From Deltaproteobacteria bacterium (lineage in GTDB: Bacteria > UBA10199 > JACPAL01 > JAHFST01), in contig JAHFST010000001.1 in NCBI GenBank assembly GCA_023265625.1, positions 97,265 to 161,264 of the forward strand: a stretch of 64,000 nt of DNA, read 5' to 3'. Positions 3,152 to 48,500 of the stretch are shown here, in pieces; position 1 is the stretch's first letter; each line of letters begins with the position of its first letter. The position numbers were made by a program, and so were the translations under genes. The notes below the pieces were generated by a model, which worked only from the letters and a program-made list of their open reading frames with translations, was not told the origin of the DNA and ran no database searches.

Positions 3152-3182
3152 AAGAGGGGAACAGGTTGCCTGTTCCCCTCTT
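3152..3182 (+). terminator. Perfect 14-bp stem hairpin (AAGAGGGGAACAGG-TTG-CCTGTTCCCCTCTT) directly after pilA. A smaller hairpin sits at 3123..3137.
   Basis: Inverted repeat read directly. Followed by TTGTCATTTGT. The position is typical of a pilin-gene terminator or attenuator. Confidence 0.55.
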
Positions 3183-3200
3183 GTCATTTGTAGGGGGGCT

Positions 3201-4731: not shown

Positions 4732-4739
4732 GGTGAGTT

Positions 4740-5867: not shown

Positions 5868-5884
5868 TCTTTTTTTGGTGCTTT

Positions 5885-7009: not shown

Positions 7010-7199
7010 TATATTCAGGGGGAAGATACCCTCTCCCCCCTGAGGACCCCCCATCTGGTCGTCACTGACTCATCATTCGCTCCGCTTAACCGGCCGGAGT
7101 AAATCCGTCCGGTTAATGCTCGTTCACTATTGGGGAAAGTGTTGAAAGTGTTTGCTGAAATGAGAATAATCGAGTAGTACAGAAGCGCGGGGGGGCTCT

Positions 7200-8081: not shown

Positions 8082-8083
8082 CC

Positions 8084-24599: not shown

Positions 24600-27500
24600 C
24601 TATCTTGTCTGTGTTGTCGTACCGGTCCTGGTGCTCGTGGTCCCGGTCCGGGTGGTGGTTTGGCGGGTTGTGGAGGTGTCTCGGGTGGGGGCGATGGTTG
24701 GTGTACTGGTTGTCGGGGTTGGCGTTGCGGTGGGGGAAACGCTGGGGGCTGCTGTTGGTGCAGTGGGTGCGACGGTTGCTGGAGCGCTGGCCTCCGGAGT
24801 GGCCACTTGAGGGGAGGTTATTGGTGCTGGCGCCGCTGCGGGTGTGGTGGGTGCCACAGAATTTACCGAGAAGATATCGGCTAGCGAATTGATCACCGCT
24901 TGATCGGCGGCGGTATCTACCGAGGTGGAAACCCGGGTGGAGAGGTCGTTGCGAGTTTGTTCCGGGATGGTTGTATCCGCCGAGATGGCTTCCTGGGTGG
25001 CGGTGACGACGATGTCATTCATCTGATCCTTGAGGCTGGCCCCGCCTTGCGTGGCCGCCGAAGAGACCACATCGTTGGCGCTGCTGGGAGCGGCGTTAGC
25101 CGCTGCCGCCTGATCTGTCGCCGCAGTTGGCAGATCTGTGACGGCGCTTGGCTGAGCTGTTACGGCATTGGGCTGAGCCGCCGCCGCTGGGTTGGTAATC
25201 GCCTTATTCGTGGCGGCTTCTGCGGATTGTTTAATTTCCTCGATACCCGCTTTGACCCCCTCTTGAGTTGCTGCGGCAATCGAACCCGCCAGGTCATTAT
25301 TGATCTTGCCTAAGACCTCTTGTTTGAGACTATCTTGTTGTTGCGGGGTGAGATTGGAGGTGGCCTCAATTTGTTTGCTGACATTCGTTTTGATGTCGGT
25401 CATGGCCCTTTGGCTGGTTTCTGCCAGGGCCCGGGCGGTGTCTTCCATCACCCGCTGCATCTCTTGTTGCTGCTGGATGGAAAGGACGACCTGCGGGCCG
25501 GTGGTCATCTGTCTCTGGAACTGCTCCACCACATTCACACGGATCTTCTCCTTGATGGCGGCGTCAATGACCCCGCCGCTGGTACGCAGCGCATTGGAGA
25601 GGTCTTGCAGGAACGGATCTTGGACCTTCTCGGGTACGGCAGTTGTACCGGCCGGGGCCTGGACTTTTTGGTCCAGGTTGCCGATATCCTGGGATTTTGC
25701 GCCGTCCTGGAAAGAGCTCTTCGGGACACCACCTGGGAAGGGGGGGATTGGATCAATGCCCTTGTCAGGTAAGCCCTCTTTTGTATCGATGATAGGGCTT
25801 TTGGAACACGCCGAGGACTTTGCCTCATAGGCCCCGAGGTCGTAGAAGCACCCCTGGGGACGCGTGACCTGGTCCAGATCTAGAATTGGATTATCAAACA
25901 TATACCCCTTGTATTCGAGGACCTGTTTGTATTCAGTTGTTTCAGAGTCCCCCTGGTCGATAGCGATTGAGTTGGCAATATTCTTGAGGTGATAATCACC
26001 CTTTTGATGATCAACGAAGTTTCCTGGGAAGTCGCTGTCGTATCCGAATTCATTTTTCTCCCCAGGGCTGTTTGATGTGATCATGCAGGTGTTCTTGGGT
26101 TCATCGGTTCCGAAGAAGGCATTGTGATGAATATTCTTCAGTCCCGTTATTTCCAGATTCGATGGGTTATGATGCATCGAACACACGGGACCGCTCAGGA
26201 GGTTGTTGAATATCTTAGGCATCGGTATCTTCTGGGTGGTTGGACTATCCTTGTACACCTTCTCAACGCATTGGTCGTATTGCTGGTAAGCGACGGTGTC
26301 GCATTGGTCGAGATATTTCTGGCACTGGAGTGTTTGTTCCAAATAGGGTTTAAGCACTGTTTTAGCATCAGATGACTTGATGGTCTCTGGGCAACCTTCG
26401 GGAGGGATAACAGCCGCAAAGCCAAAGAGATTCATGCAGGATAAGGCTACCCCTGCGTCTTCGAGCTTCTTGCAAGAGGAAATGCCTGTTGCATCGGGGT
26501 AAACGGCGAAGAGTTTCTCGTTTGAGCCAAGAAAGGCATCTCCCTTATTATCCTGACACTGGGAATCAACGGTGTTCTGCAGGAGATCGACGCCCGCATC
26601 CTGCAGCTCAACTCCGTGACAGGTCTTCTTGCCAAGGGCCTTGATCAAGTTGTTGGAAATAACGCGATTGCGGAGACCTGGGAATCCCAGGCCATGCCAG
26701 GAGACACCGTAGAAGTCCTGGTCCGCCTTGGCCGTTGCCTCGATCTTGTTTCGGTCGAGGACGAGGGTGGGGGCGTCTCCGGCCAGGAAGCGGGCGAGGT
26801 CCATGCAGCCCGTGCTGAGGCAGCTCGAAAAATTTTCCGTATCTTTGGAGCCGGGGATCGGACGCTCACATGTTTTACAGGCTGGAAAATCGGAATGTTT
26901 GGGACATTCATCGGGTCCCAACATCCAGCCAAGCTCGATCTGTTTGAGGCATTCGGAGAGGCTTGGAGTGGGTTCCTTGGGCAGGAAACTGGCAAGATAA
27001 TTGTTAGCCCAATCCTTGCAAGACCCTTCACCACGGAATCCATAAGTCTTCACAGCCTTTCCTCCCTCGATAGTATTACCCCGGATCAAAAAATCTAGGG
27101 GGGAGCAGGAGGCGGTTGAGACATAGATCCCGGTGCTGGCAACTAGCGAGGTCCCCGCGTGGATCTGGTTATTTTCCAGGACCGGCTTAGCCCTCTCGAG
27201 AGAGGACGACTTGATCTCCAGGGCGGTGCTGAACATGTTCGGGTAGGATGTGTTGGTGTTTCCTTCGATGGTATTGTCGCGGATCTGTGGCGATGCATTT
27301 TCCCCAATCTTGATCCCGGTCGGGGTGGCTATCGACGTGTCCTTATCCGGCAGATAAGCCAGGGCCACGATTTCGTTATGGGCGAGTGTGGGAGAGGCAT
27401 TGGCAATCGAAATGGGGACGCAATTTGCTCCGAATGTGAATGTGAGAGACTTGTCGGGTTTGAGCGTTATCCGGAAGCCGTCAATCAGGCTGTCCGGGCC

Positions 27501-30500
27501 CACGGGGGAGGGGACCATCGTGCTGTCGATTTGGAAGACATTCGTGTCACAAGAGGTCCCAACGATCTGGGTTGTGTAGCCCTTTTTGTCCGGAAGATTC
27601 GCGATGACAGATAGGTCAGGTTTGTTAGGGTCAACCTTCACATCCATCCCAGCAGCTAGATCGATGCAGAGAGGGCCGATGCAATTCTGTGCTTTCAGGG
27701 TTCCTTTTACTGGGGCCTTTGGTTCGTCTTCGTATTTTACGTACCGCATCAGGCACTGGTAGTTCTTGCTGTCCTGGGTGAACTTCTTCAGTTTGAAGCC
27801 ACCCCAGATTCGGGTTGAGGCCGGTAGCGTCAGGCCCTGCTCATGGTACTCATAAGACTCCTGCACATCGTTCCCTTGCAGAACGATCACATCGTAGGGC
27901 TGTTTGGTGCATGGGGTTTTGCAGGACTCGTAGGATTGTCGACAACTCGACTGCCAGGAAAAGGGACAGGAAATTCGGTCTTCAGTGCACTTTTGCTGGC
28001 AGGGCGCCGCTGCCGTCTGACAAAGTCCCGTTGGACTGTTGAGGCAGGCACCGAAGGCATTGTTGCAGCCTTTTAGGCACGGATAATACGTATCCGCGTA
28101 ACACGTCTTTAGCCCTGACGACAGGGGATCATTGGTGTCAGCGCACTCCTTTTTCATCGGTTGACAGGCCTTGTCACAGGTCTCCTTTGCCTGATCGCAG
28201 GTTGTTGACAGGAATTTGAGGCTGATATCCTTGCACTCTGGTTGATTGGCGCAGTTCTCTGTTTTACAGGTTGACTCCACGACATCGCAGGTGCCTGAGG
28301 TGCCAGCCTTGCAGCCCTCATATTTTCCATCGCAGTTTTGCTGGATCGCCTCGCAGAGGAAGGGGGGGGCATTGTTTTTCTGACGCTGTGTGATTTTGTC
28401 CAACGCATCCTTGAGACTATGGAACGGATTTCCGAGGGAGCCCAATGGTTCGGTAATATCCACTGCCTTATTGTAAGAGTTGTCCACTATGTCCAGCTTA
28501 TCGGGAATAATTTTGTCGATGAGACATCCGATGCCGACACAAGGAACGACCGCTTTTATCGGTGGTTTTGCGGTCACAAAGAAGGTGGTGCGCAGATTAG
28601 TCGGGATACCTTCCTGCAGGAGGACATTGTTGAGTATCTCCGCATGGGTCGGGTCCCAGACGGCATAATCCAACTTCCCATCCTTGTCGGCATCATATCC
28701 ATCCGGCTTATCATCATAGTTTGTGTCGAGGGTAGGGGGACAGGAGATAATCGCACACTTATTGTTGTTGATATCATAAACCTGTCCAGCGGGACAGGTG
28801 ATCTTGGCGGGATCTGTGCAGGTGCCGCTGTAGCAGACGGAACCACTGCTACAATCGTCCTTCTTGGTGCAGCCGGATTCCCCCGGAGACATTTTGCATA
28901 CCCCGAATTCGCAAATACCGGACTGACATTCCTTGGTTGCCTGGCAGGAGCTTCCCGCTGGTGACCCTGGGGGACATTGATCCGTCGCGTCCTTGGGACA
29001 CTTGTCTTCACTATCGGGGATCCCATCCCCGTCGGTGTCAATCCCGTTGGTGCAGGACCCACTGGTACAGGTTTGGCTTGGGGCACACTCAGAGACGGCC
29101 GTGCAGACCTTCTTTGATTTACCGACCAACTGGAAGCGCCCCTTGACCAGGTTCTGTTTGGCTCCGTTGCTCGTCTCGACCGTCAAGAGGGTATTGAGGG
29201 TGATGGGGGCGTCATAGGGTACGACCAAGGTGGACTGATAACCCTTCTCAGGAGGGGTGCCTAGATCGATGCACGCTGATTGGCCAGAGATTGTGACTGC
29301 GTTGTCACTCATCCCCGGATCTCCTACCTCCAGTGTTGCCGCCTGCGGGCAGACGCTCTTACCGTCTCGGTCAAAGAAGCGGACCTTGTAGAGGTACTCG
29401 CCCTGATTTGCCGTTGGTTCAACGGTCGGATAGGTAAAGTATAATTGGTAGGTGTATATCTGCATAGCCAAGCTGACGTCGATGGAATCGGTCTTGGGAT
29501 TGAGTGGGGAACCACCGCCGTAGCCGTTGTAGTCTCCCAGCAACTCGAGGTCGGGAGATACCCCCTTGCCATAGGAGGGCTGGGCCACCTTCTTCGGATT
29601 CTCCTTGTCTCCCTTATTGACATCGGAGGTGAGGGCCGAGACGTCATAGGGATCAAAGCCACCCTTCTTGGCCTGAGCGTTTTTATCGTCATCGCCGTAG
29701 TTTTTGACACCACCCGGATCGACAATGCCAGTACCGGCTGTAATCGCAGAGTCCGGTGAGAGTGTGGTACCGGCCGGAGACCCATCATCCACGACGAGAT
29801 TGATGGTCCCGGCAAACCCGGTCCAACCGGTCTTAACTTTATTGATGGGGATGATGGCCAGATCGACCATCCCGGTGGCGCCCCCCGAGTAGCCCCCGGC
29901 CACCACTAGTTGCTTGTTCGTACTATTGGGGATGAGTATTGCGTTGGCGCTTGGATTGCTGATCCCGGCGACGGGTATTGCCTTTGTGGTGTCAAACTCC
30001 ACGACGCTGGAATCATAGTTGATGGTAAACCCAAAGGTCTTGAGGGGTTTGTCCCCGACGTTGGCCCGGAAGGTGATATTTGGACCGTTTCCATTAGGGA
30101 TGACCGGGACAAAGCGGCCCGTTAAGGGACCCAGATCGAGATCGCCCACGTTGGCGTTCATGTTGACAGCGGCATGGTAGGTCAAGCTCTTGCTACCCAC
30201 AGAGAAGGTCAGTTTCACCGCCCCGTTTTTCTTTGGGGTGAGTTGCAATTGATCTGGTGGAAGGTTGGGGACCTCGGCGGATGGAGCGAGGGCAGGTCCA
30301 TCGTAGGCAGGCAGCGCCAGTTCGTCAATCTTTGTCGTCAGTAAGGATGTTTTGAAGGCGTTCCCATCCCCAGAGGTCAGGATCATTCGAGTCCCATCGG
30401 TGAATTTTCCAACGACCGTTAGGGGGTAGGAGGACTCGGCGACCCCGGAAAGGGTGGTGTCGAAGGCGACATCACCATTTGTTACTGGGAGCGATTCGTT

Positions 30501-33500
30501 GTCGAATCCCTGGAAGCCCTTTTCCTTGGGAACATTGGCACCCAGGTTGGATGTCTTGCCCCGAATGATGAACCCATCGAGGGTCGTGTTATCAGGCTTG
30601 CCTGGTTCAGGCTTGGTCTGGAAGGCGACCTCTTGCTCTTCAACGGTTAGTCCCAGGGTGGCATTGAGTTCCTTCCCAACGAGGGGTGGGAGAAACTTAA
30701 CTAGAATGTCCCCCGATTGACCCTTACTCCCATCGAGTGCGAAGCTGCCCGGCCATTTTGAATTGGAATTTCCATTGACTGGGATAGGTTCCGTAAAACC
30801 AGCGGGTACGGCGAGACTCGCCTTATCAGTTGGCAATTTGGCGGCCTCGTCTCCCCCAAGAAATATCGAAGACCCATCGGTCCATTGACCCGTGACGACC
30901 AGACGTAGCAATTGTTTCTTGTCATTCTGCCCTTCAATCTTTGAGAGGGTTGTATCCTTTACGGCATTGGCAAAGGTCCCATCCTTGGCAGGATTGTATT
31001 GGGGGAGTTTGGCCGGGTCGTAGTCCTCGTAGGTCTGGAGTGAGATCTTGGTGAGGGTATTCACAGGGAGTTTGCACGTCTGTTTCGGGATCCCCAGATA
31101 GTCGGGCTGGAGCTCAATCGTGACCCAGCCACCATCTGATGGTGGTGGGGTGTCTTGGACCTCCACCGTGTTAGTACTGGCCAAGACCTTGGCCGGTTGA
31201 CCGCTCAGATCCTTTCCGTCAATCGTCTTGATGAGGTTGGCCCCTTCCGTGACGACGTACTTGATCTTCGCTGGGTCCACCACATCCTGCTTCACTCCCT
31301 GTTTCAGAACCAGTGGACTGGTTGTTTTGAGAGCCAAGAGTTTCGCAGAGGCATCCTCGGTGCTGAGTGCCAGGGGATCACAGCCAGTGAGGGTTGCCGC
31401 AGGTGCCGGGATATTGATGGCGACCGTTGCGGCACCCTCTATGCCCTTGCCAAATTTGGCGGAAACATTTGTGGTCTTTTTGCCTGAGGTGGCCGGATGG
31501 ATCATGAGTTGGCCGGAGGCATTGACGTCGACTTTGATCACGGAGGGATCACCGATGGTAAGCAGTGCCGGTTTTTGCTGATAGGCCGTCAGGAAATTTG
31601 CAGTGACGTCATAACGGGAGTTGTCCTTGGTTATGAGCAACAGGGTAAGAGGGGTGCTGTCATCCAGAGAGGTGAAGGTGTTGAAGGCCATGGCCTCCAA
31701 GGTGTTTTTCTGGCTGACGTCGCCGGTCAGGGCCCCGAGGGTTGCGGGTGATTCGGTCTTGGTCATTTTCACGTGGGCTGGGACGACTAGGAGGGATTTA
31801 AAATTCTCACTCTCTGCTGAGACGGTCAGCTCTTTGGCGGCAATGGTTTTGTCTGCAACAACGATGCGGATCTCGGCTTTTCCCGACTCGAACGGGCTGA
31901 TGAGTCCTGCCTCCGTCACCGTGAAGACAGCTTTATCCGGGTTCTTGAAGGTCACATAGGGTGTGAGATCAAGGCGGATCTGGCCGTTATTCCAATAAAG
32001 ATGCGCCTGCACCTTGGGGTAGGCATCGTTCCCGTCCAGGTTGAGACCCTTCAGTTTGGGGATGGTGTCTGTTTTGGAGTCGGTTTCGACGATCAGCTTG
32101 GCCGGGTCTATCGAGGTGACATGGACTTGCATGTTGCCAACCGATTTTCCCGCATAGGTGGCGGTGAGATTGGCATCGCCTTCTGCCTTGGATTTTACCT
32201 CACACTTGACATCTGTCCCGACGGCGGTTGCACCGGACTTGTCTTCACACTTGAGGTTGTTTAGGTCGGCCCCTGTGATGAGGTTCATGCTTCCATCGTT
32301 TTCCACCTTCAATGTCCTGACCACGGTTGTTTGTGGGACACTGGCAGGGAGGACCAGTCCTGGAATCTTATCGTTCGAGAAGAGTTGGCCATTTTCAACA
32401 AATCCCAGGATGCCGCGAACTTCTTTGTTCAGGACGGCGATATTTCCCGTACCCGGTCCGGACTTATCGGCAATGAGTAGGGGTTGTTTCTCTCCCGAGA
32501 GCGACTTCTGTGCCGGATCGGTGTAGTACAACTGATTGGGTGTTCCTGAAATTGCGGTCGTCGCCGGGAGCGGTGTGGCTGTGGATTTAACCCGGAGGTG
32601 GAGGGTCGCGACTTTTTCTTTATTCGATGAGATCAGGAGATTGCCTGTGGCTGCGGAGGTGAAGGTGATCGGGGTGTTGAGGCTGATACCCTCAATGTCC
32701 CCGAAGCCTGTCGCAACCTCGATGGGTTTGGTTGCCTTCGGATCAAATTCGATCATGGTGCCATCAAATTTGATTTCAAACTGGAATGCTTGGAGACCCT
32801 TGCCCCCCGTATTAACGAAGAGGTCGGCAGCGAAGGATTCACCGGCTGTGAGGGGACGCTTGGGTAGTTGAATCCCAGCCTGGCCAGCGGTCAATTGCAG
32901 GTCCCCAACGATCCCCTTGAGGGTGATGTTTGCCGGGTCACCCGATGCTTGCAGGCTGTTCCCGTCGAGTTTTAACTTGACCGAGACCATTTTATCCAAA
33001 CCTGGTTCAAAGAGGGAGGGATCGAATTTGATGTCGCCACTGTAGATCCCCGGTTGTTGAGTCACACTGAGGGGGTTCGAGAAGAGGGTATTGCTATCCT
33101 TGGTGATTTCAGCCTCAGGGAGTAACCCACCCTGGTAAGGTCGGCCATAATCGTCGGTTACCAGGGCAAAGACCTTGACGGTGGGCAGATCGGAGTAGAC
33201 GTCGCCACGGGCCAGGATCACCTGGGCCCGGGTGGCGGCGCTATTCAGTTTGATCTCCAAGGGCTTGCTGTCTGCGACATTGCCACCTGCGCTGGCCTTG
33301 ACGGACACAGTCCCGGGTAAGGCCAGGTCTTCGAGGAGTCCCTGGTAGGTCCCGCCTTTGCCGGCTTCCTGCCACCAGAGTCCATCCCAGAAACCGCCGA
33401 CGAAACCGTCGGTTCGGCTTGGGGTAAAGGAAACATGTGCCCCACTGACCGGGAGGGCACCCTCTAGGAGATTACCCAAAATCTTGATGGTGACTGGAAG

Positions 33501-36500
33501 GGTGGACTGCTGAGCTTGAGCGTCCTTGGCGATGAAATTAAGATGGTAGGTTGTTCCTTCAGGCGCCCCCGTGGTGTTCCAATTAAATTGACCTGTCGAT
33601 GGGACAAAGGCTGTGTCTGGGACCTTGTTCGTGTCGCTTGCAACCTCGTTCCAAGAGAGGCCGGCATTACCCGCCGCCACCTGGAAGGAAACGATGGCCC
33701 CTGCGGCGACCTCGTAGCTGGTCTGGGTGGGCGAGGTGAAGACGGGGAGTTGATTCTTGATTGTCGCATCCGGGCAGAAGCCGTCCACCGGTGGTTTTTG
33801 ATCCGGGCAGGAGGCAGCCATGCAATTGGGTGGTTGCGCAGCATCACAACATTGATTTGCATCGTAAGTCTTGTCGGCAGGGCAGCTGGTGGGTATGCAA
33901 CCGGCCTTGCCAGCGACGACCTTGCAGGTGGTTCCGTTACAGGTGATTAAGGAACAGTCTTCGGGGGGCTGGCAGCTGCTTCCATCAGCGTTGCAGCACT
34001 GCTTATTGATCGGGTCAAACTGCATGGCCTCCGGGCAGGTATCATTTTTTTTGCATTGTTTGGTGTCAGGCTGGTAGGTGGTGTCTATCGGACAGGTGCC
34101 GCAGTAGTCGAAGAGACCGTCGGTTGGGATGCTGTTGTCGATGGGATTCAGGCCCCCCTGACAGCCTGTTGGATCCTTGCTGCAGTCACCGCTGGCATCA
34201 CAACACTTGGTGGCCTGTCCGGCCGCCCCTTTGCATGTCAGCCCCACATCACACACGATTCCGTAACAATAGTCGACGGCCTCTGGATTGATGGTGACCT
34301 TTTTGACCGGACCTGAGCTTAGGTATTCTTCCATCCAAAGATTTTTTCCTTGGGCGTCAAATTGACTGATCCTGACCTTGACGTTGAGTGTGGGCAATTT
34401 GGGATTGAGATCCGATTTGATAAATTCGTAGACCCCTTGTGCCGTGTCCGCTGTCCCCACCAGCTTTGCCTCGACCGTCTGCTTCAAGTCTTCGAGGATA
34501 AACTCCACCTTGATATTTTTGTTGATCGATTTCGAGGGTTTTGCGCCGGGGCCGCTTACCGTAGCCGTCAAACGAATGGTGCCGAGGTTATTCTGATAGG
34601 GGTATTGAGCGTCAACATCGACCCACAAGGCATTCCCCACCAGGATCTTTTGCAGGTATGACGTGTCGTTCGAATCGACGGCTCCGTTAAAATCGGCGTC
34701 GGCATCGTAGAGGGGAAATTTTTCCGGGGTGACACTGTTGGTCACGATGGCGTTTTGGAGGCTCTGGATGTCATCGGAGGAGAAGCCTTCGATACTGTTC
34801 ATATCCGCTCGCCACCCGCCCGGTGGGTCCATTTCGCCCATCCCGGCGACAATCGGTCGTCCCTCCACGGGGATTGCTGCGCCGATGGGGTTGTTATCCG
34901 GATCATAGAGGGCCTTGATGATCCCTGACAGCTTGGTGACCTGTTTTTCTTGCTTGGTCGGGATGAATTTGATCTGAGCAATCTCCAAGAGGCCTTGTTT
35001 TTTGTTGAGCCCACCGGAGAAGGTGCTGACGATCTTGATGGTTCCAGTATCGGGGTCGGCACCCGGTGTGAAGGTGTAAGCGGAATTTTGGAGATCCTTC
35101 CCAGGGAGGATGGAATTACCAGGTTTGCTATAATCGGCGATCTTGAGAACGTCCTTATCGTATAGGATCTGGATCTCAAAGTTCCCGAGCGGTGTTTTGT
35201 CGGTATTAACCCGAACGGGCAGCGTAAATTCGCCGCCGGACTGGTCGGGGAAGGGGACTCCCAATTCTGGGCCGATGTCGATATCGCCCACGGTGGGGGT
35301 CTCGTTGATGGCCAGCTTGAGTTCCTCTTTGGTATCCAAGGTGAGTTTGTTGCTTGGATTGATGTTGGCACTGAGCTTGACGGCGCCATTTTCGTGTGCG
35401 GTGAGTGTCAGTTTGTTGTTGGCCTCACTCAAGGTGGCAAAGTCCTTCAATTGATACTGATTAGGGGGGCCGGTCTTCAGATCACCGGCCGTGACATCCA
35501 GGAGCCCCGGGACTTCGATGGTTCCATCGTCACTACGGACCAAGAGGGCCTGGGTAGCGTCCTTGTCATACTTGGTAATAATGTTGACGAAGTGTGGACT
35601 TTCATCGGAGGCGCTCAAGGTCTTATCGGTCAGGGGAGTGACCTTGCTATTGCCCGCGGTGAATTCGTTGCTTTGAATGTGGAGCTCACTGATGTCGTCC
35701 GGTATGGGATCGATTGTGAGCTCCAGGGACTTTTTCTTGTTATCGTAACCTTGCCAACCCAAGGCAATGGTGGCCTTGTTTTCATTCGTATCCGGGATGC
35801 CGCGCACAAACATCCTCGGTTTGTTGAGGGTTGCCCCACCGGTCACATCCAACTGGAGTGACACGTTGTCCTTGAAGGGGGTGAGGTCGAGGCTGTCACC
35901 GTCGGTCAGAATAGCCTTCGCCCAGAGCCGGACCCATTGGTAGGCGCTGGATTTGGCGATCTTGTGCAAGGTTGTTTTCGCTGGTGCGTTGTCATTCTCG
36001 GGGTAGGGGGCGAGGGTCTTGAGCTCAAACCCTTGGAGTGTCACAATATCAATAGTCAATTTACGAGCCAGTCCCATAGCCTTGATGTTTAGGGTGGCGG
36101 AACCGCTATTTTTGGCTCCCTGATTCATCATCAGGGTCAGCGCTCCGTTAAGATCGATAAAAAATTTCGGGCTACTGACATTGGGTAAGGCGCTCATGGT
36201 AGGTTCGGCCTGCTCGGTGACATCGATTTCCTTGGATCCAAATTTGGCAAAGATCTTGAAGCTTTCTTTGGTGGAGTACTGTTTGAGGATTGTTACAGGA
36301 TCATTCGGCGACAGGGCCAGTTTTAGATTTTTTCCTACCGGAATGATCTCGTTCGTTGGGACCTTTTTCAGGATTAGCTCTCCAGCGGGAGGGATGACCT
36401 CGACCAAGGTGTCACTATCCGTGGCAATTATTTTTGTTGGGTCGTTCTGGTCCGGCAGCTCCGCCTTCAGGTGGACTTTGCCTGGCAGGGTGGAGCTTAC

Positions 36501-39500
36501 CTTTGTTCCTTCGATTGTTACCACCCCCGCCGTTTCACCGTCTTTGGGTGTGATTGTGATCTTCCCTGAGGTGACAAGTTCCGTCAGGTCCTGAGGGGTA
36601 TCTTTCGGATCATTGGTCAGTCCCAGGACCCGGAGCGTGGTACTTTGGCCGATATTGGAGAACACCGTTGTCACCTTGGAGCTCAAGTTCTTTTGGGTGG
36701 CATCCTTGCCGTCGCTCAAGGAGCTGCCCACCGAGGCCGGGACGACGAGGTTGAGTTCGGTTATGGTTTTTTCGGCGGCGCCCACCGTGACATAGAACCC
36801 GGCACCCAGGCCGGCGACGGGATTCTTCATTGCGATGATGGATTTGCTGGAGGGTGTGGTCGCGTCAGGTGCCCAGAGCAGGTGGTTGGGCTTGTCAATC
36901 TTCACCACGCCTTCTTTGAGGATGTCCTCCGAATCCATGCTCTCCAGCTCGACCTGGTCTGTCAGGTCCCGAATGGTTCCATCATCGTAAGAGGCTTCGA
37001 CATGGTAAGGGCTCTTCTGGAAAGGTGTCCCAGGAAGATTGCTGATCTTGTCGAGATCCTGATCGGCAATCTTGAGTTGGAGGTCTTTGACGGGGTGGAC
37101 AATGGTGGTGGTTGTGGCGGAGCAGCCACCGCAATCCGGATGAGTGATGGTGAACTGAGCTGTTTGAACATCGACAACTCCCTTCTGCTTAACGGTATGG
37201 AAAGACAATGGTGCCGCGTCTGGTTGCATCGCAGTTGACGGGGTTATGGCCACTGCATCTTTGAGATCCACCAGTGTGCCATTTTCACTCAAGCCTTTGA
37301 CAATGATATTGAAGCTTGCCGGATTTACATCATCGTAGATCACCGGCCGCGAACTCCAGGCGAAGAGTTTGGTGAGGACGGCTTTCTTGATCGTAACCGA
37401 GGCTTGGCCCTCTTGGAATCCGTTTTTATCACGAACCTTCATGGCGGTTTCTTGCGCGAAGATGGGGGTGTTGCCCGTTAGTATCTTTTCGTACAGGCTG
37501 GTCACCTTTCCGGAGAGGGTGGTATCGAGTGTCGCCAGATCCATGGCCTTGGGACGGAAGGTGATCTCTGCCAAGGTGATGGCGGGATCTTTCAGATTCA
37601 AGGTGTGCGCGGTAAAGCCGACGTAGCCCACGGTCTTGGGTTGGAATTGCAATTCTTGTGAGCTATTGTCAGTAGAGTTGGGTAGTTTGGTCGCAAGCTT
37701 GATGAAATCAAACTTAGCTTTGTCGAAATCAACCTGAGCCTTGAAGTTGTCGATCGTCTTGCCGGCGGGATTTAACAAGATCACCGGCACCGTGAATTCC
37801 TGTCCGGCGAAGTTGCTTGTCGTTGGGAAGACAGGGCCGAAGGGGGTCTCAAAATAGACACAGGTCTTGCCTCCACAATCAGGTTTTGCCGGTTGCTTCT
37901 TGGTGGTGATGTCCGCGGTCTTGTTGGGGATATTGATGTTGAACGTCAGTTTTCCATCGCCATTCGGCAGGTTGAATTGATCGCTTTGTGGATCGACTGA
38001 TAAGAGTGATGGACCGAACCCTGATGGATCGGTCGTCAAGAACAGTGGTTGGCCCCCTATGACATTGGCTGGAATCACCTTCCCTTTGCCGACCGGTTGT
38101 TGATTGCCGCCGAAAAATTGAGTCACGAGCGGGGTCGACAAGATATTTTGATACAGGGTGTTGCGGCTCACACCCAACTCGACGCTCGCAGGGTCCGGGG
38201 AGATGGCATATTCCTGGGCGATGGAATTGGGGCCGCCTATCACGGTGGCGCCGGCCTTCCCCATCCCCGCGGGGACGAGGTTGATGACCTGACTGGCGTA
38301 TGTACCATCGTTATTATCGCTAACGAGACCGGAGGATTCGCCGACCAGGTCCACCCCTTGGGCCGCCTCGATCTTGTTGGTGCCGGTCGTCAGCTTGGCC
38401 CCCTTGACCGGCTCGCCTGAGATTGTGTTATCACAGACGTCGCCGATGTTATCAACATCGCCATCCAACTGATCGGCGTTGGCATTTTGAGGACAGTTGT
38501 CCTTGGGGTCGGTGACACCGTCCTTATCGGTATCGAGACCCAGCATGCACTGGCCGGAGTTTTCAGCAGGTTTTAGGTTGCAGACTTGATCCTTGGGGCA
38601 TTGGCTGTCATCTTTACAAACGGTATTTTGGTCGCAGGCATCGCCGATACCGTCTTGATCCGAGTCCTGTTGTTTGTCGTTGAAGACGTAGGGACAATTA
38701 TCGCAGAGATCCCCCAGGCCATCTTGGTCTATGTCCGCCTGATCCGGATTGGCAATCTGAGGACAGTTGTCCGTAAAATCTGGGATCTTGTCCTGATCAT
38801 AATCTTTGACGCCGCAGGCGTCCCCAACCCCGTCTCCGTCCGAATCCATTTGGTCAGGATTGGCAACCTTTGCACAATTATCACAGGGGTCACCGATGCC
38901 ATCTTTGTCTTCGTCCGCCTGATCCGGATTTTTCTGTGCGACACAGTTATCCGTGCTGTTGGAAAATCCATCTCCGTCGGTGTCAAGGACGCAGGCCATC
39001 TTCTGCGGATCATTCACCTCACCGGCTGCACATTGATAACAGAAACCTTTATCCGTGTTGCACTGGCTTCCGACGGCGCAATCTAACGGGACGTTGCAAG
39101 TCGGTTTGCAACCCTTCACACTGAGGTCGCATTTCTGCTTGGCACCGCATTGGGTGTCCTGCGTGCACGAGGGTCCATTCTTGCCGGGGATGGTGATCGT
39201 TTGCCCAAAGTCAAATGAGGATACACCGTTGGCCATGGTGGAATCGACATGGACTGTGAAGGGCACTATCTTGTCGTTATCGAGATTGTCCGGCAGGGGG
39301 ATTATTTTTTCACCGCTGATGGCATCGAAGTTTGTTGAATCGAGAGTGATCCCGTTTAAAAATTGAATGAAGTTGTCACCGGTGCTGAAGGTCAGTTTGA
39401 CGTTGTCCGGGACCTTGTTTTCCGTGTTGGCGACGACCACTTTTAGGGTGTTGTTACCGGGTAGCCCCTTGATGACATCCGCGGTGACAAAGTGATAGGC

Positions 39501-42500
39501 CTTGCCGCTGATTTTGAGCCCGTAGTAGACGTCGTTGATATCCACCCCGTTGTTGTTGTAATCGCCTTGCGGTTTTAAGTTCCCTACCCCGCCAATGGCA
39601 TCTCTCAGGGCCACAATATCATCGATGTCATAGATCCCTTTGCCATCGTAGTCTTTGAATGCCGTTGGGTCGACGAAGCCGGCGGCGGCCGTCAGCGGGT
39701 TTTCATAAGTCTTTGCATTGGTAGCAACCTTTGAAGTGCCGGTAAATTCTGTCACCGGGTTTTGCGCGGGATCATCGGTCTTGGTCTGCGCTAGGAAGAT
39801 AAGGGTGCCGAGGTTGATATCATTGCCAGTGGGGTAAGGTTCCGCTAACGACCCATGGAAGATTAATTCCGCAGTTTTGTCCTTTGCAACGCCCTGTTTG
39901 TAAGGGGGAAGCTCTGCGGTAATCGTGCCCGCAGGTGGGTTTTTGATGAGCAGCTTGGTCGGGTCTGCCGGATCCGTGGCCATTTTGAACATGTCTTTGT
40001 CATAGAAGAGGTGGATCTCAAAGCCCTTGAGTTTTTCGTTGCCTACATTGGCACGGAAGGGGAGGAGTGCGCTGCCACCCTTAGGAAAGATTTCGACAAA
40101 ACGTCCCGAGGGTTTTCCTAGATCGACCTCACCCATGCCAGGTTTGAGGTTGATGGCCATTGTGAAGTCTTGCATTGGGGGTGGGATTGGTTTGGCGGCA
40201 TCGCCGGTATCATCCTTGTTAGGATCGATCGTCCAGGTGGTCTTCAAGGCCCCGTTGGCATTTACCATGACCTTCCCGTCAGAGAATACGGCGGCCGGCG
40301 TTGCCTTCATTGTGGTTCCCGCAAATTGGATTTCGGAAGAGGAGACATTGAGGAGAGCTGTCCCGATCGGGTTGCCCTTGGTTATGAGCAGGGCCCGTGG
40401 ATTACCTGTCTTGCTCAGGTTATTGGCATCGACCCGATCCGAGCCAAAGGTGGCAAAGGCCCGCAAGGTGACGGTCTCTCCCTTGATGGCCTGGACGGTG
40501 GCGTCAAATTTAACCTCATCGTTGGTGGGATTGTTTTCCACCTTCGCCTCGCCGGAGAGTCCCAGATTGGTGATTTGGGCATGATAATTGCTGTCAATCT
40601 TGAGGGTTGTCGTCTTCTGGTCTTCCGGGATTGCCGGTGAATTTGAAATGATTGCACTGATTAAGGCCGCTCCATCATTGATGGGTGTCAAAAGGTAGTA
40701 ATCGGGCCACGGAAAATCTGGTTGAATGATATTCTCAATATTCAGAAAACCCGGGGGTATTGACCACTGAGGAACTCCGATTTCAATTTTATTGATTGCC
40801 TGGGGACCCAAGTGGATCTTTGTGTTGTCCGACCAAGTCCCCTCGAGGAACATCCGCACCTTTTGATAGGTCTTGGTATTTTCGATATAGGAGAGGTAAC
40901 TGTCTTCCACCTTGTCATTGAAGTTGCCGCTGTTGAAGTCCTCGTAACTCTTGATGGCGAGTCCGGTCAATGTCATGACATATTTATTTTCACAGAGGAC
41001 ATCCGCCACATCGCTGTGGATCTTGATTGTGAACTTTCCTCCTTTTGCGTCTGGTGCGGCCTTCAGAAGGCAGGTCTTTAGGGCATTTTGGTCAATGACG
41101 GAGTTGCCATCTTCTACCACGCTACAGGTCACCTTGGTGCTGTTGTTAGGCAGTGTGGTGTTCGAGTCGGTCAGTAAGATTTGGAGTTGTCGCTCGGCAG
41201 GGAGTCCCAACAGCATCTTGGCTGGGTCATTGATCGCCCGGGCGATGGGGCCGCAATTATCAGATACGGCATTCATCGGATCCAGCTTGATGATAACCGG
41301 TGAGTGGGTGGTTTGTCCCACTAGGGATGCATCCACATAGACCGTGTTGTTGGGATTGCTCGTTGGTTTCAAGACCTGGAACAAGAGGGGATTGTTGACA
41401 TCTTTTGCTGCCAGACTGGTGACATCGTTGGTGCTGATGCCACCCTTTCCACCTGGTTTGAACAGGTCTTCGGGAAGATCTCCTTCTTCCGTAATGATGG
41501 GGCTATTCGGGTCTAGCGGGTTTTCTTTGTAGGTCAATGTCCCCAGCACCCTAACCTTCATGACCTGTTGATACTTGTTGAGGACATTGGTGACCGTTGC
41601 CCCGCCTCGGGTGCTGCCAAAGGTCTTATCTGCCAACGAATTTAAGGTGACTGCCTTGGCGGAGGGTTGGACGACCGAGCCGGGGGTTACCACCTCCATC
41701 TTGGTTAAGATCAACGGATTGGCTGGATCGGTGGCTGAAACGGTGATGGGGAGGGTGGCGATCGTTTGGGCGGAAATTTCCTTGGTATTAGCCCGGAGTT
41801 TTCCATCCTTGCTCCCGGCGGCGGGACCTGTGACGACTTGGAGGAGTCCCTGCTCCGCTTTGACATCAATGCCCCCCACCGGTTGAATATCCACCTCATT
41901 GATGAGATCGATGACAAGGTCACCTCCCGAGATATTTTTCATCTCGGGGACCGTCCAAGAGAGGTGGAGCCGAGCCGTCTGGAAGGAATCGGTGCCGTCG
42001 ATCTTTTGCAGGTTGGTATCGCTTGCCGTCAATTTCACCTCGTCGGGATTGTCCCAGTTGGGTGTGATTGTCTTGACGAAGATCTTCCTAAATTCAAAGG
42101 TTGATTCGGGATCGATCGGGGTTTTTTTGTAGGAGACAATCAGCTCTGCGGTACCCGATTTTTTTGCCTCGGTCTGGAATTCTCCCTTGCCGGGGTCGGG
42201 GATTGTGATGCCTATCGTAGGTGTAAAAGAGGTATTGGTTGCCGCAAAGTTCAAGGCCTCTCCGGCCGGGGCGGTGATCGAATCATCCGACCGGATCAGT
42301 CGTGTGGCAATGGTTCCCTTCGTTTGATTGAGCGGTGCCGCTGCCCCCGGCACAAAGACCAAGAAAGGATCCGAGGCCCAGGCAAAAAGACCAACGACCT
42401 CCGGTTTGGCCAACGGCAACTTTCCTTCTGCGGTTGTCGAGCCCGTAAAGTCGGCGACCAGCAACGCTTGTTTCTCGCCATCCAATGAGACCTGGACGCC

Positions 42501-45500
42501 CTTTTTACCCGCGAGTGTGGTGATGTGTCCTCCGAATTTTGCTACCAGTGGAGGATTTTCGCCTTTAACGACCTTGAATTTGAGCCGGGCCATTTCGAGG
42601 GTCTGGGGGCCGGTTGGTTCGGTGCTTCCTTCCAGATAGGAGTTGAATTTGACGGATTGATTAAAAAGGATATTACCCTGGGCGTCTTTCTCCTCGGCAA
42701 TGTCAACCTTATGTCCATCTACCTTGGCAAAGTTGACTTTTTGGATATCTTTTCCGTTACTAGTCGCTTGGTATTGCAAGAGATCCTTGTTGAAGTAGAC
42801 GGAGATATCAAAGCTGGTGAGGTTGTCTCCCTCCTTGAGGTGGATCATCACCGGCACCTCGATTTCGTAGCCGGGCATTGGGAGCCGATCAGGGAGCTGG
42901 AGGCCGGCGAAACTCTTCTCCTGGCCGGCATTGTCCTGCGGCCAGGCGAGCTTGGCAACCTTTGGTTTCAAGGTGACCGCCGTGGGTTGCGTCGCCAGGG
43001 CCTTGCCGATGGCTTCCAGGTTTACAGCAACTTTTTTCCCTTCACCCACCGCCAATTTTTGGTACGTGGTGTCGAAGTTGACCTTGGCCTGGTAGATTCC
43101 CTTGTCTGGCGTGGGGCTGGCAGCAACCGAATCCGCACCGACCTTGAGGGAGGGTGGGTTGGAAACGGCCAATGGTTGTCCCTGCTCATCGGTCAAGAAG
43201 ATATAGGCGGTGAGGTTCGAATCATCTTCGTAGACCTCGCTTCGAGAGAGGGTGAGATAACTCCGGGCTGGGTTATCCGTGATAGTGAATGGGGCCGACG
43301 TGCTGTCTCCCGAAATTTTGGCGGTGACCTGCCCAGCCCCTGGGGTGGTGATATCGAGAAAGAGGGCGGTGTAATTCCCATTAAAGCTATCGCTATCCTG
43401 GAGGATTCCCTGCCAGATTCCGGGGAGGATGGAGAAATCAACCAGGGCATGTTTGACCGGGGTTCCGTCTAGGGCGGAATCCTTGATCACTTCGATGTCG
43501 ACTGTAACGTTTACCTTGAGTTTGGTGACATCGTCATGCACCGAGAAGGTGGACTGGTAGACACCCGCGGGTGTCTGGTCGGTTGGTGCCCAGGTGTAGG
43601 TGTTTGTTGCAAGATCAAGCTGGGATCCTGGTGTGGCGGTGTTGTCGACCACCGAGTAGGTCAAGGGATCGCTTTGATCATCCTTGGCCTTCAACAGAAT
43701 CGAAAGGGTGCTTCCCTGGGAGACGGTGTATTTTTTGCCGAATTCGTCGGGCCAGTACGGGGGGGTGTTGCTGAGGTCACCCGTGCAATCGCCGACTCCA
43801 TTGAAGTCTGGGTCTAAGCATTTTTGTCCCGCGGCGCAGCCATTAGGATTCGGAGGCTGAATTGACGGATCGCAGGTGCCCCCACCGAGGCAGACGCTAT
43901 TGTTGACGCAGGTCTGGCCATTTGGACAGCCGGACTGGCTGTCGCAGGGCTTGGGGGGCATACAAACACTATTCAGGCAGGTTTCTCCGTCTGCAAACTT
44001 ACAGTCGGTGTTCACGCTACATCCCTTGTTGGGGCAGATGATCTGGTCCCCCACTTGTTTGCAGGCCTGGCACTGCTGGCCATCGCAATACTGACCCTCC
44101 TTGCAGTCGGATCCTTCATCACACGTGATTCCGGGATCGACGCAGAGTTTGTTGACACAGACCTGCGGGGCACATTGGCCATTGTCTTGGCAGGAGGGAG
44201 GGGCCTTGCAGAACCCGTTCAGACAAATTTCGCCATCCTGGCAAATATCGGTGGGTTTGCAAGGTTCATTGTCCTTGAGCTTGCATTGATTGCCTTGGCA
44301 AATTTGATTGGCGTTGCAATCGCCATTGTCAGCTGCGTCGCAGACTGATCCAACATCCGTGCAGGTTTTATTGACACAGGTCTTGCCGAGGCCGCATTGA
44401 TCGTTGTTGTCACAAGGTGGACCGGGGATACATTGTTTATTCTGACAAATTTTACCGACATCGCAATCGCTGGTCTGCGTGCAGGAAGGCGGACCGTTGG
44501 GATCGACGTCGAAGGAGGTGAGCCCGATGGTGTTGGAACCTTGCAATCCCTTTGCCTCGCGGAAGGCATTTTCCTGTTTGGTGTCTCCATTCTTCTCTAG
44601 GGTACGGACGACGACGGCCACTGGGATATTTTTCTCAACGGCACCGAGTTTTTCCGCCGTGACACCGTAGCGTCCTCCTCCCAGGGGTTTCGCCTTGACG
44701 TCGGCGAATTGAGGGCCGGCATCGGGTTCTTTGCCAGCGTCAGGATAGACCCAGTTTTGGGCGTTGCCAGAACCAATCTCAAAGAAGACCTCCGTGGTGG
44801 CCGGATCCGGCGGGAGCTGGACGGACTGGGCATTGAAATCTCGGCTGTGGAGTTCCACCACGAACTGGGCCTTGGTGTAATCGTTATTGTAGGGGTAATT
44901 AACTATCGGTTTGGCGACCCCCGTGGTCGGGTCGATCTCCCCCGTGACAAAGTGGGTGGCCCCAACCCCCATGCGGTTGAGATAATAGGCGTCCTGCCAG
45001 GTGAGGTCGCCGTCGGTGTAGATATCGTAATATTTGAGGAGCGATGGATTGGCGATCAGGTTATTTTTTGCGTCGGTCTTGGTGGAGACATTCAGGGCCG
45101 CGGCGGCATCGCTGATGTCTACTTTTGGAAACTTGCCTTCCTCAAAGAAGGCATCGCCAAAGAAGGTGGTGGGGTCGATGTCACCGGCGCCGGCAACGAT
45201 TTGTTGCACATCTTTTGCGAGCATTGGTTGGCCATCGGGCGCCACCACTTTTTCCAAGCCGCGGATGGGACTCCAATTGGCGGCCTTCTGGTCGAGGGCC
45301 GCCTTGGTGATGAAATTGATGTCAAAGAGGGAGAGTGCGTCGTTGGGGGCGAGTGGGGTGGCATTTAAGAAGCTGACCTTGATGCCCGCCAAACCTTTCC
45401 AATCTTCTGGAATATCCGAGTCGTTGGTTTGTTGTGAATTGTCCCAATACTCACAGGCCAGTGAACCGGAGAGGCCCTTTGCCAAGGTAATGGCATTGGA

Positions 45501-48500
45501 GCAATCCGCTAACTTTTGTGCCACATCGATGATTTTCTTATCGTAGAAGAGCCGTAGGTCGACGCCCTGGGTTGGTCCCGCAAACCCGGTGGTGGCGATG
45601 CGCACGGGGAGGGTGAAGGTTCCTACCTTGGCATTGAGATCAAAGGCATGGCCCAATGGATTTCCGAGGTCGATGTCGCCCGTGGTCGGGATGAGATTGA
45701 CCGGGAGCTTTTGGTTGACACTGACCTGGAAGGCTTCTCCCTGATCGACCTTATCTTTGAGATTCATCAAGATACGGCCCACGCCGTTGTCGTGGGCCTG
45801 GATGCGGCCGGAATTGAGGTCGAGTGCGGTGACAAAATCTTTGCGCTTCAGGTTGACAAAATTGGTGGCGGACCCGGAGACATCCTCCGTGGTAAAGGAC
45901 ACCATGTCGTCATAATCGTGTTGGCCATTCTGGGTGATGAGGGTGTGGACGTTGTCGTCTGAAAAGGTGGCGTAGGTGATCATCCTGACTTCGTTATTTG
46001 GGTCCTTGACGCCGCGGTAGGTCGGGTTGGTGGGGTCGCCGTTGCAGGTGCCGCCCAAGGTGATGGTGTTGTTGGCCTCGCAGGTTCGTTTCCAATCGAT
46101 GCGCAGCTCCTTAATGTTGACCGGTTCTTTGGAGACGGTGATGGGTAGCCCGAGGCTCTTCATCTTGCCCAAGATCGCGATGAGTCCGATTTTTCCGTCG
46201 TCGATTTTGGCCTTGATGCGATTGGTGGGGGTAAAACCATCGATGCCACCTACCTCGATGATCCCTTGCAAGTCCGACTGATCGGCGATGGTGTCGTCCC
46301 CGCGCAGAATGACCTGGGGATCATTTTCGTCGTTGCGGCTGGCGGCGATCTTGTCTGAGACATCGAGTGTGGAATTATCCGAGAAAGTGACGATGACCTT
46401 GGCATCGGCCTGTTGATAGTAAGGACCGTTCTCGATCTTGGAGAGGAAATTTTCTGGTGTCGGATTCAAGCTCGGAGGGGTGTAGGTTTCGTAGCTTTTA
46501 AGCGAGAGCGATTGATAGCTCACCACATTCACCGTGAAGGGGAAGGTGAGCGCGGGCCAGAGCGAGATGTTGAGGGACATGGTTTCACTTCCGGTCCCGG
46601 ATGGCCAGTTGTTGATCGTTTTAATGGAGGCGAAGTGAAATTCCGTCCCTGCTTCATTTTGGGTGAAGCCGACCAGGAAGTCGGCGGGGAGCATCTTGGG
46701 ATCGTGGTTCCAGCCTGAGTTGTAGGTAAGATCTTGGCAGCCGTCCCCTGTGACCTTTCCGTCCGGGGTGATCGCGCAGACTCCTCCCTTCATGTTTCCC
46801 ACCACCCGATAATCGGGATTTTGCGGGATCTGTTTCAGGGCGGAGGTAATCTCGTCGCCATTCAGGGCGATGGTGTAGGCACCGGTCGTTTTGGCATACT
46901 GGCCAGCCGTTCCTTTCACCCAGATTTCCACCTTCTTCGGTTGGGCGAATTGGACCTTCACAGTGGCCGCCTGTTCAGGGAGATCCTTCCACTTGGCCTT
47001 GAGATCGGTTGTTCCACTGCCGACGGCGGTGACCTTGGTGCCGTCCACCGAGACCACATTCGGGTTGCCCGAGGCTAGCGCACTCTCGCCGGTTACATCC
47101 ACCCGGTTACCGTTGGGAAGGATTCCATACACCGTGGCCTGGACCGTCTGTCCTATTTCGGTGAAGAGGGAAGAGACACCCGCCTTGACTTCCATGTTGT
47201 TGGCCGCCGGATCAAGCGTGTCCGGGGGAGGGGTGATGGGACTGACCCCGACATGGGCTGGGACGACCACCTGGAGCGAAGCGGGGACGGTGGATGCATT
47301 GGGATCGTAGCCCAATGTGAGTTTGGCGGTTTGCGGGAGTTTTGGATCGGCGGTCAGGAAGGTGAATTCACAATCGTTTTGTTTCGCCCCGCCGGAGAGG
47401 CTCACATAGCCCGCCTTGAGCGTGATATCGCCTTTGTCGCAATTGGTGACTTGGAAATCGGAACTGTCGAGCTTCCCGGTGATGTTCCGGTTTACGCTTT
47501 GGAGATCCCCCGTATATTCTCCCACGACACGGAATTGGAGGAGTTCGTCTTTGCCCAAGGTGATGGGTTTCTTCAGGTCAACGGGGAGCGCCTCTACCCA
47601 GATTTCGTGGAGTTGGAGGTTGCGCACCGGCAAGGTGTTGCTGAGGACCTGCTCTCCCTGCTTAACGGTCAGGTCGGTTTTGCCTTCCTGCGCGCCGTTG
47701 GTGAAACGATTTTTGGGGGATTCTTGCGCGACAATTATCTGGGGATTGCCGGAGATCAGTTTGAGGTCTTGATCGAATGGATCTTCCCCGAACGCCATGG
47801 AGTCGCCGAGTGGTTGGTTCGGGTCGTTGGTGATATGTCTGACTGAGACCTCGCCTACCTCTTTACCGGATTCTCCCTCTAGGGGGCTGCTATCAAAGAG
47901 CTGATTGCTGTTCGTTGTCAGGAGGAGGCCGCGGAGTGTCTTGGCGATGACATTGACTTGGCCGGAATTGTCGATCCCTCCGTTGCCGTCCCAGACCTTG
48001 AGCGGCGATCCTTTGGGGACGGTGAGAGGTCCTGCCACCAGATCGGCTGTCAAGGCTCCGGAGAAGTTGAGCGCTCCCGGGGCGGTTTGTGCGTTGACCA
48101 TGAAGGTGGCCTCGCCCAGGGTGATGGTCCCCTTTTTCGACGGCACATCATCCGTGGCGCTGAAGGTGATGTCGGTGGCATTGGCAGACGCCGATTTTAG
48201 GGTGAAGGGGTCGGGAATTTGCGGAGCGCCGATGACGCTCACCAAGGCGGGGTCAAAGTTGATCTTGGCCCCGTATCCTTTCAGGGGACTGGCCACGTTG
48301 GTTCGGATGGCGGCTTGAAATGTTTCTCCGGGGATCATCGCCTTGTTCGGCAGTTCCAGCCAAATGTCACCCGCTTGTTCAATGAAGGCGGGGGAACCGA
48401 TGCCGGTGACGGTGATCTTTTGCGAGGTCTTCGCCTGAGGCGTTTCCGGCAAGGCGGTGGCGGAGAGGAGAAACTTGGTGCCGTCGGGGAAATCAATGTA

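Follow-up and report, generated by a model that had tools for sequence, protein, structure and literature searches.

INTRODUCTION

Primary scaffoldins commonly carry a dockerin, and the dockerin of one scaffoldin binds a cohesin of another (PMC5590126). In the amylosome of R. bromii, the cohesin of Amy4 has been found experimentally to bind this protein's own dockerin, which gives rise to multimers (PMC4611034). An adaptor with both modules is known from a planctomycete, and a "planctosome" model has been proposed for the Planctomycetes (PMC6461901); adhesin proteins containing both a cohesin and a dockerin have also been described in sulfate reducers. Here, we describe a protein of 12,088 amino acids (aa) that carries twelve cohesin-like and six dockerin-like modules in a single chain. 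It is encoded within a stretch of 64,000 nucleotides ("the window"; contig JAHFST010000001.1, positions 97,265 to 161,264) from an uncultured bacterium deposited as a member of the Deltaproteobacteria. A preliminary description of this stretch started from the premise that cohesins and dockerins reside on different proteins, which does not hold, since scaffoldins (PMC5590126), Amy4 (PMC4611034), the planctomycete adaptor, and the sulfate-reducer adhesins all combine the two.

Cohesin and dockerin proteins outside the cellulosome were described in Bacteria and Archaea by Peer et al. (2009), as reported in PMC6461901 and PMC9012536. According to a source cited in PMC9012536, the Archaea that have these modules lack scaffoldins with multiple cohesins, and the function of the modules outside cellulosomes is still considered unsettled (PMC9012536). 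Another relevant group is the "Dockerin-type giant proteins" of the Omnitrophota, extracellular proteins that are rich in dockerin/EF-hand and TSP3 motifs and for which a role in attachment has been proposed (West-Roberts et al. 2023, bioRxiv 10.1101/2023.11.21.568195).

RESULTS

A single 36-kb gene contains all of the modules

One open reading frame (ORF) on the minus strand of the window (24600 to 60866) encodes the 12,088-aa protein, and this 36-kb gene holds all of the cohesin-like and dockerin-like modules. Self-comparison of the protein reveals a diverged super-repeat of approximately 1,740 aa that is present six times, mostly at 25 to 40% identity where identity is detectable. The order within each of these cassettes is the same: a Cys-rich spacer with TSP3 repeats, beta-rich domains, a type A cohesin, a beta-rich stretch of approximately 710 to 775 aa, a type B cohesin, and a dockerin fused to that type B cohesin (D2 to D12 follow the B modules of the same number). 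The protein as a whole is enriched in G, T, A, D, and P. All six peptides quoted in the preliminary description are present in the minus-strand translation (for example, those beginning with DYDGKG at 39588 to 39653, DYNNNG at 39510 to 39563, and DADADFNG at 34635 to 34706). The span that it singled out (34625 to 39700) is real but covers only D8, D10, A9, and B10, whereas the feature as a whole is the 36-kb gene.

No long DNA repeats were found in the giant gene, which indicates that it is neither misassembled nor a collapsed repeat. The low identity among paralogous modules (18 to 40%, except for the A3/A11 pair, at 60%) likewise rules out an assembly artefact. In a Kyte-Doolittle scan, the sole hydrophobic stretch of the protein lies at aa 5 to 27, with Arg residues before it, and this segment would fit a Sec signal peptide or an N-terminal anchor.

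The beta modules are homologous to cohesins

An iterative hidden Markov model (HMM) search within the protein, seeded with one module, converged on exactly 12 cohesin-like modules, with types A and B alternating approximately 870 aa apart. The preliminary description had claimed at least 12; cross-type and external-only HMMs link all 12. An HMM built from the A modules only finds the B modules, and one built from the B modules only finds the A modules, with scores of up to 28 bits compared with a best score of 0.1 in 20 shuffled proteins. Furthermore, an external-only HMM, built from the corresponding units of 34 relatives with no sequence from the window, finds all 12 cohesins at 13.8 to 115 bits (shuffled maximum, −1.3), and the external-only HMMs match nothing in the protein beyond the 12 cohesins and the six dockerin-like modules.

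When the modules were scanned singly, Pfam Cohesin (PF00963) was above its gathering score for three of them (B10, A11, and A9), below it for three others (A7, A3, and B4; Table 1), and silent on six (A1, A5, B2, B6, B8, and B12). Such single-module scans were needed, as almost none of the modules were picked up when Pfam was run on 4,000- to 4,500-aa chunks. In the PDB, a profile of the 12 modules matched only cohesins (the top eight matches are all cohesins; best E value, 0.005). In a Foldseek comparison of the AlphaFold2 (AF2) model against the PDB, the top 23 matches are all cohesins; the modeled fold is the nine-stranded beta-sandwich (jelly-roll) of cohesins and is closest to that of the type I group. 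Overall, we conclude that the beta modules are true cohesin homologues, with identities to the B10 module of only 18 to 28%.

Each type B cohesin is fused to a dockerin homologue

As had been proposed, a two-segment helical module (58 to 92 aa) begins no more than approximately 6 residues after each of the six B modules, and an HMM of these six modules finds no further copies in the protein. The external-only HMM from the 34 relatives recovers all six at 6.4 to 38.4 bits (shuffled maximum, 3.5). Against the PDB, a profile of the six modules places solved dockerins first (best match, 4fl4_A; E value, 4e-4), with both calcium-loop segments aligned and with calmodulin-type EF-hands ranked lower. 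The modules consist of two tandem segments, each with a 12-residue EF-hand-like calcium loop and a helix; across the family, loop 1 has the consensus D-x-N/D-x-D-G-x-F-S/D-x-x-D and loop 2 the consensus D-x-[D/F/Y]-x-D-G-x-V-D-x-x-D. Calcium ligands were scored at positions 1, 3, 5, 9, and 12 of each loop. Four of the six modules (D2, D4, D8, and D10) have ligands at four or five of the five positions in both loops, so that the near-canonical loops of the preliminary description are borne out for these four, but the first loop of D6 and both loops of D12 are degenerate.

The AF2 model of the B10-D10 unit, made with the 34 external units added, has a mean predicted local distance difference test score (pLDDT) of 79, and the helical module reaches 83 to 95; with the six paralogues alone, the pLDDT was 51 and the model was unusable. 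The helical module is modeled with the three-helix fold of dockerins and is type I-like. The alternative raised in the preliminary description, in which the calcium loops belong to a helix-free TSP3 wire, was not seen: the modeled module is helical, and the TSP3 repeats lie in separate spacers. These helical modules are true dockerin homologues.

At the junction between cohesin and dockerin, conservation across 40 fused units is at least 90% for A139, D145, and P146, and G142 is invariant in the six window units. The relative placement of the two domains is not fixed in the AF2 model (predicted template modeling score [pTM], 0.54; linker pLDDT, <50), which may speak weakly against tight packing in cis. 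The conserved Asp-Pro that immediately precedes the calcium-binding module might be a site of calcium-triggered self-cleavage similar to the one in FrpC, an idea that found no support here.

Relatives preserve the modules position by position

An exhaustive HMMER search found 388 metagenomic proteins that match the six fused units at an E value of ≤1e-3. Among the top 150 matches, 48 proteins, mostly giant, contain a total of 60 complete fused units, and 56 matches contain stretches that correspond to the dockerin part only; many of the matches listed are 250 to 1,100 aa long and have several such stretches. A metagenome scan with the B10 unit gave no match. Half of the 40 fused units (20/40) score as Pfam Cohesin and seven as Dockerin_1 (best E value, 4.4e-8). 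In one relative (P0044), Cohesin and Dockerin_1 are both above threshold in the fused order, and Dockerin_1 is also passed by P0026. Those relatives that have names are annotated as "hypothetical protein" or "cohesin domain-containing protein" and come from metagenome-assembled genomes (MAGs) labeled Deltaproteobacteria or Myxococcales.

The alternation of a type A cohesin with a fused type B cohesin and dockerin is also found in P0001 to P0006 (4,254 to 7,894 aa), two to four times in each. One of these, P0003 (6,646 aa), aligns colinearly, at 31% identity, with the N-terminal 5,550 aa of the window protein, and the two have a C-terminal beta-helix-like domain in common. Against D2, D4, and D6, the three P0003 dockerins score 140, 91, and 102, respectively, compared with off-diagonal scores of 19 to 46, and both cohesin types show the same positional correspondence. 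This pattern shows that every module is individually under purifying selection. From the position-wise orthology, it follows that the six cassettes are ancient, nonequivalent, and each individually maintained. Since the three cassettes of P0003 correspond to cassettes 1 to 3 of the window protein, the number of cassettes varies by lineage, with their order and identity being kept.

P0003, P0005, and P0006 have the same N terminus, cassettes, and C-terminal domain as the window protein, but with only two or three cassettes. A further observation concerns D2, which has one Cys in each helix (GFDCLKLQ and GDVTRCLQ); both are kept in the positional ortholog (P0003, aa 1590 to 1668), which suggests that a cassette-specific disulfide may join the two helices.

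Spacers, inter-cohesin stretches, and termini

Cys-rich spacers similar to the one at aa 7225 to 7500 (Table 1) are found at aa 1800 to 2200, 3600 to 4000, 5400 to 5800, 8800 to 9100, and 10580 to 11000. Pfam TSP_3 (PF02412) is above its gathering score at 74.7 to 109 bits; its matches are restricted to the Cys-rich spacers and are absent after the B modules. The stretches between cohesins A and B (710 to 775 aa; for example, 35262 to 37403 on the minus strand) align colinearly across the six cassettes. Neither Pfam nor a PDB sequence search gave a match for them, and they are probably made up of immunoglobulin (Ig)-like beta domains.

The C-terminal domain has only weak matches (Pfam Beta_helix, 25.6 bits; NCBIfam choice-of-anchor Q, 20.2 bits) and no relative in a PDB sequence search. 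It is conserved in P0003, P0005, P0006, and P0023 and could be the functional head of a fibre. No recognized sorting signal was found in the tail that follows it.

Table 1. Coordinates of the giant gene, its modules, and a neighboring locus (positions in the window)
Feature	Residues (aa)	Position	Strand	Evidence or description
Giant ORF	1-12088	24600..60866	-	Signal-like N terminus, six ~1,740-aa cassettes, C-terminal beta-helix domain, low-complexity tail
N-terminal signal-like segment	1-29	60780..60866	-	Kyte-Doolittle scan and sequence
N-terminal Cys-rich/TSP3 calcium-binding spacer	30-400	59667..60779	-	Pfam TSP_3; Cys density; TSP3 motifs
Cohesin-like A1	701-857	58296..58766	-	External-only HMM, 17.1 bits; no Pfam match
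Cohesin-like B2	1572-1708	55743..56153	-	External-only HMM, 94.3 bits; no Pfam match
Dockerin-like D2	1709-1781	55524..55742	-	Loops with 5/5 and 4/5 ligands; external-only HMM, 34.3 bits
Cohesin-like A3	2439-2579	53130..53552	-	In-protein and external HMMs; Pfam, 14.3 bits (subthreshold)
Cohesin-like B4	3343-3481	50424..50840	-	In-protein and external HMMs; Pfam, 12.1 bits (subthreshold)
Dockerin-like D4	3482-3551	50214..50423	-	External-only HMM, 24.7 bits; Dockerin_1, 13 bits (E = 0.13)
Cohesin-like A5	4169-4303	47958..48362	-	External-only HMM, 13.8 bits; no Pfam match
Cohesin-like B6	5072-5235	45162..45653	-	External-only HMM, 51.3 bits; no Pfam match
Dockerin-like D6	5236-5308	44943..45161	-	External-only HMM, 22.9 bits; first calcium loop degenerate
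Cohesin-like A7	5988-6149	42420..42905	-	In-protein and external HMMs; Pfam, 17.8 bits (subthreshold)
Cohesin-like B8	6921-7070	39657..40106	-	External-only HMM, 47.2 bits; no Pfam match
Dockerin-like D8	7071-7128	39483..39656	-	External-only HMM, 19.2 bits
Cys-rich spacer with seven TSP3 repeats	7225-7500	38367..39194	-	Pfam TSP_3, 109 bits, 7 stretches; Cys density
Cohesin A9	7677-7821	37404..37838	-	Pfam, 24.3 bits (gathering score, 24.1); HMMs
Cohesin B10	8536-8684	34815..35261	-	Pfam, 39.1 bits
Dockerin D10	8685-8750	34617..34814	-	Loops with 4/5 and 5/5 ligands
Cohesin A11	9331-9474	32445..32876	-	Pfam, 26.1 bits; HMMs
Cohesin-like B12	10250-10387	29706..30119	-	External-only HMM, 45.9 bits; no Pfam match
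Dockerin-like D12	10388-10479	29430..29705	-	External-only HMM, 6.4 bits (weakest copy); both loops degenerate, with insertions
Cys-rich and right-handed beta-helix-like C-terminal domain	~10636-11700	25767..28958	-	Ends in DYHL...RP...YDLGAYE
Q/A/T/P-rich low-complexity tail	11700-12088	24603..25769	-	Sequence; no family match
Type II secretion/type IV pilus-like locus		21..14452	+	Converges on the giant gene, ~10 kb from its 3' end

Genomic neighborhood and host

The genes that flank the giant gene are ordinary chromosomal or housekeeping genes. The IspH protein encoded in the window is 66 to 69% identical to those of MAGs labeled Deltaproteobacteria, Myxococcota, and Pseudomonadota, and the host is an uncultured Myxococcota-like bacterium. 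The secretion-like locus (Table 1) encodes a GspE-type ATPase, GspF, pseudopilins (N_methyl/GspH and PilX_N), an AAA_22 ATPase, PilM, a secretin, and a TPR-SLT transglycosylase. Two ORFs with a 4-nucleotide overlap, for CoaB (DFP) and CoaC (Flavoprotein), lie immediately upstream of the giant gene (60995 to 62268, minus strand). CoaBC is encoded by one fused gene in most bacteria, and the separate ORFs could reflect a genuine split or a frameshift. Farther upstream, an ORF of 541 aa (62337 to 63962, minus strand) has no Pfam match.

DISCUSSION

We consider that the gene product is a secreted, apparently noncatalytic, calcium-stabilized giant scaffold or adhesin whose dockerins bind in trans within an extended fibre, a reading to which we would assign a probability of roughly 50%. 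The protein probably builds or decorates a fibre outside the cell. After Sec export, the chain would form an extended extracellular fibre, and its dockerins would bind cohesins either on neighboring chains or in distant cassettes of the same chain. By analogy with the docking of scaffoldins to one another and with Amy4 multimers, such binding may cross-link fibres or close loops. With 12 cohesins and only six dockerins, surplus cohesins may be left free for other dockerin-bearing proteins. A more specific version is speculative, and we regard it as unlikely: the six cassettes would provide six orthogonal cohesin-dockerin specificities, each retained at its own position since before the species diverged, and the chains would bind one another in fixed register or loop back at set points. 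The product would be a lattice or bundle of fibres outside the cell that is genetically addressed, self-assembling, and switched by calcium, and not simply a sticky scaffold of a generic kind.

Several observations weigh against trans binding within a secreted scaffold. No carbohydrate-binding module (CBM), S-layer homology (SLH) domain, or sortase signal was detected when the protein was scanned with Pfam and NCBIfam; no enzyme domain or cell-wall anchor was found in the window; and no other ORF in these 64 kb bears a cohesin or a dockerin. None of the six dockerin-like modules passes the gathering score (22.9) of Pfam Dockerin_1 (PF00404), the best being D4 with 13.0 bits (E value, 0.13), and so the profile check proposed in the preliminary description was passed by cohesins (3 of 12) but not by dockerins. 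Calcium-ligand residues have been lost from loop 1 of D6 and from both loops of D12; the degeneration of the D6 loop is also seen in the ortholog and must therefore be old. Positions 10 and 11 of the loops, which are the cohesin-recognizing residues in type I dockerins, have no residues common to the six dockerins in either loop. Finally, the linker between cohesin and dockerin, at no more than approximately 6 residues, is unlike the long linkers of scaffoldins, although such a short linker would fit a fixed composite domain and a binding pair equally well.

Some of these same features could be accounted for if cohesin B and its dockerin formed a rigid, calcium-stabilized structural bead, with the dockerin packed in cis, and if these beads, together with the A-type cohesins, were only spacers of an adhesin stalk with no partner to bind. 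The short linker and its conserved junction (A139, D145, P146, and G142), the block-wise inheritance of the unit in no fewer than 48 proteins, the retention of D6 and D12 despite the decay (in D6, ancient) of their calcium loops, and the lack of conserved cohesin-recognizing residues among the copies all argue for such a role. However, the AF2 placement of the domains is not confident (pTM, 0.54; pLDDT, 79; linker, <50), four of the six dockerins have near-complete sets of calcium ligands in both loops, and purifying selection acts on each dockerin separately; moreover, the A-type cohesins, which have no adjacent dockerin, are left unexplained. We view the purely structural role as possible but rather less than probable.

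A scaffold for enzymes, as in cellulosomes, is a more doubtful alternative. The 12 cohesins would in that case recruit dockerin-bearing hydrolases encoded elsewhere in the genome into a multienzyme complex at the cell surface, for the degradation of polymers or prey, and the scaffold would be tethered to an anchoring protein through its six internal dockerins. Many cohesins on a noncatalytic secreted protein is indeed a scaffoldin-like architecture, the dockerin-only stretches in 56 of the top 150 matches indicate that such dockerins also stand alone, and the "planctosome" model is of the same type (PMC6461901). On the other hand, those dockerin-only matches may come from different organisms, the window and the protein lack the partners and the CBM, SLH, or sortase features noted above, and the divergence of the cohesins from B10 (18 to 28% identity) means that they would not have a single dockerin specificity in common. 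A last idea is that the beta modules are generic Ig-like domains and that the calcium loops, instead of belonging to dockerins, form a generic TSP3/EF-hand wire or are D/N-rich motifs that arose by chance. It draws on the failure of Dockerin_1 on all six modules, the six of 12 beta modules with no Pfam Cohesin match, and the abundance of real TSP3 repeats in the protein. We consider this idea highly improbable, as the TSP3 matches are confined to the Cys-rich spacers, the PDB profile ranks dockerins ahead of calmodulin-type EF-hands, and, with the external-only HMM, all 18 modules score far above the shuffled controls. Together with the AF2 model and the fold comparison, the PDB profile matches and this HMM refute a TSP3 wire or chance motifs.

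With its single chain of 12 cohesins and six dockerins, approximately 388 relatives, and cassette identity that is kept between species, this protein offers a compact test case. Should the pairs bind, the family would reveal how very large extracellular assemblies are built by bacteria other than Clostridia and could be a source of orthogonal binding pairs for protein engineering. If the cassettes did have orthogonal specificities, this family would constitute a natural collection of mutually orthogonal pairs located within single proteins. If there is no binding, the cohesin-dockerin tandem would have been reused as a purely structural unit.

Comparison with known systems

No description of a six-fold cassette with a type A cohesin, a fused type B cohesin and dockerin, and positional orthology was found in the literature searched. 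The Omnitrophota giant proteins share with the window protein a type II secretion-like locus near the gene (here, approximately 10 kb away). However, they are at least 30,000 aa long and have C-terminal membrane segments and SecA-like domains, whereas the window protein has 12,088 aa and only an N-terminal hydrophobic segment, and no SecA match was found in it in Pfam scans. Their dockerin-like helices flank a CBM35-like barrel, with no cohesins reported, in contrast to the genuine cohesins found here, and the lineage of the window's host is labeled Myxococcota/Deltaproteobacteria. Membership in this class is ruled out by the IspH relatives, the size, the membrane topology, and the lack of a SecA match.

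The non-cellulosomal proteins of anaerobic methanotrophic (ANME) archaea and their sulfate-reducing partners, of the "planctosome," and of Chlorochromatium (Cag_2037/2038) are similar in carrying cohesin and dockerin modules in organisms that have no link to cellulose. They are often large and adhesin-like, with Ig-like domains and TSP3 repeats, and some have "adjacent cohesin/dockerin domains," but one or a few modules per protein have been reported there. Amy4 is the best precedent for self-assembly, although it is a 1,356-aa GH13 enzyme with a single pair, whereas the window protein has no catalytic domain and has six pairs with six additional cohesins.

With the cellulosomal scaffoldins (such as C. 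thermocellum CipA, A. cellulolyticus ScaA/ScaB, B. cellulosolvens ScaA1, and R. flavefaciens ScaA), the window protein shares a secreted noncatalytic chain with many cohesins and a dockerin. Neither the partner dockerin-bearing hydrolases nor the CBM or cell-wall anchor that characterize a cellulosome were found in the protein or the 64-kb window; unlike these scaffoldins, it also has no X-module, and its host is Myxococcota-like rather than a clostridial cellulolytic bacterium. Its modules are highly divergent and position specific, and TSP3/Cys-rich spacers and beta-rich stretches of approximately 700 aa lie between its cohesins. It is a non-cellulosomal relative of the cellulosome scaffoldins, and its fused cohesin-dockerin unit is unusual for them: in place of one dockerin, it has six, each joined to a cohesin almost without a linker.

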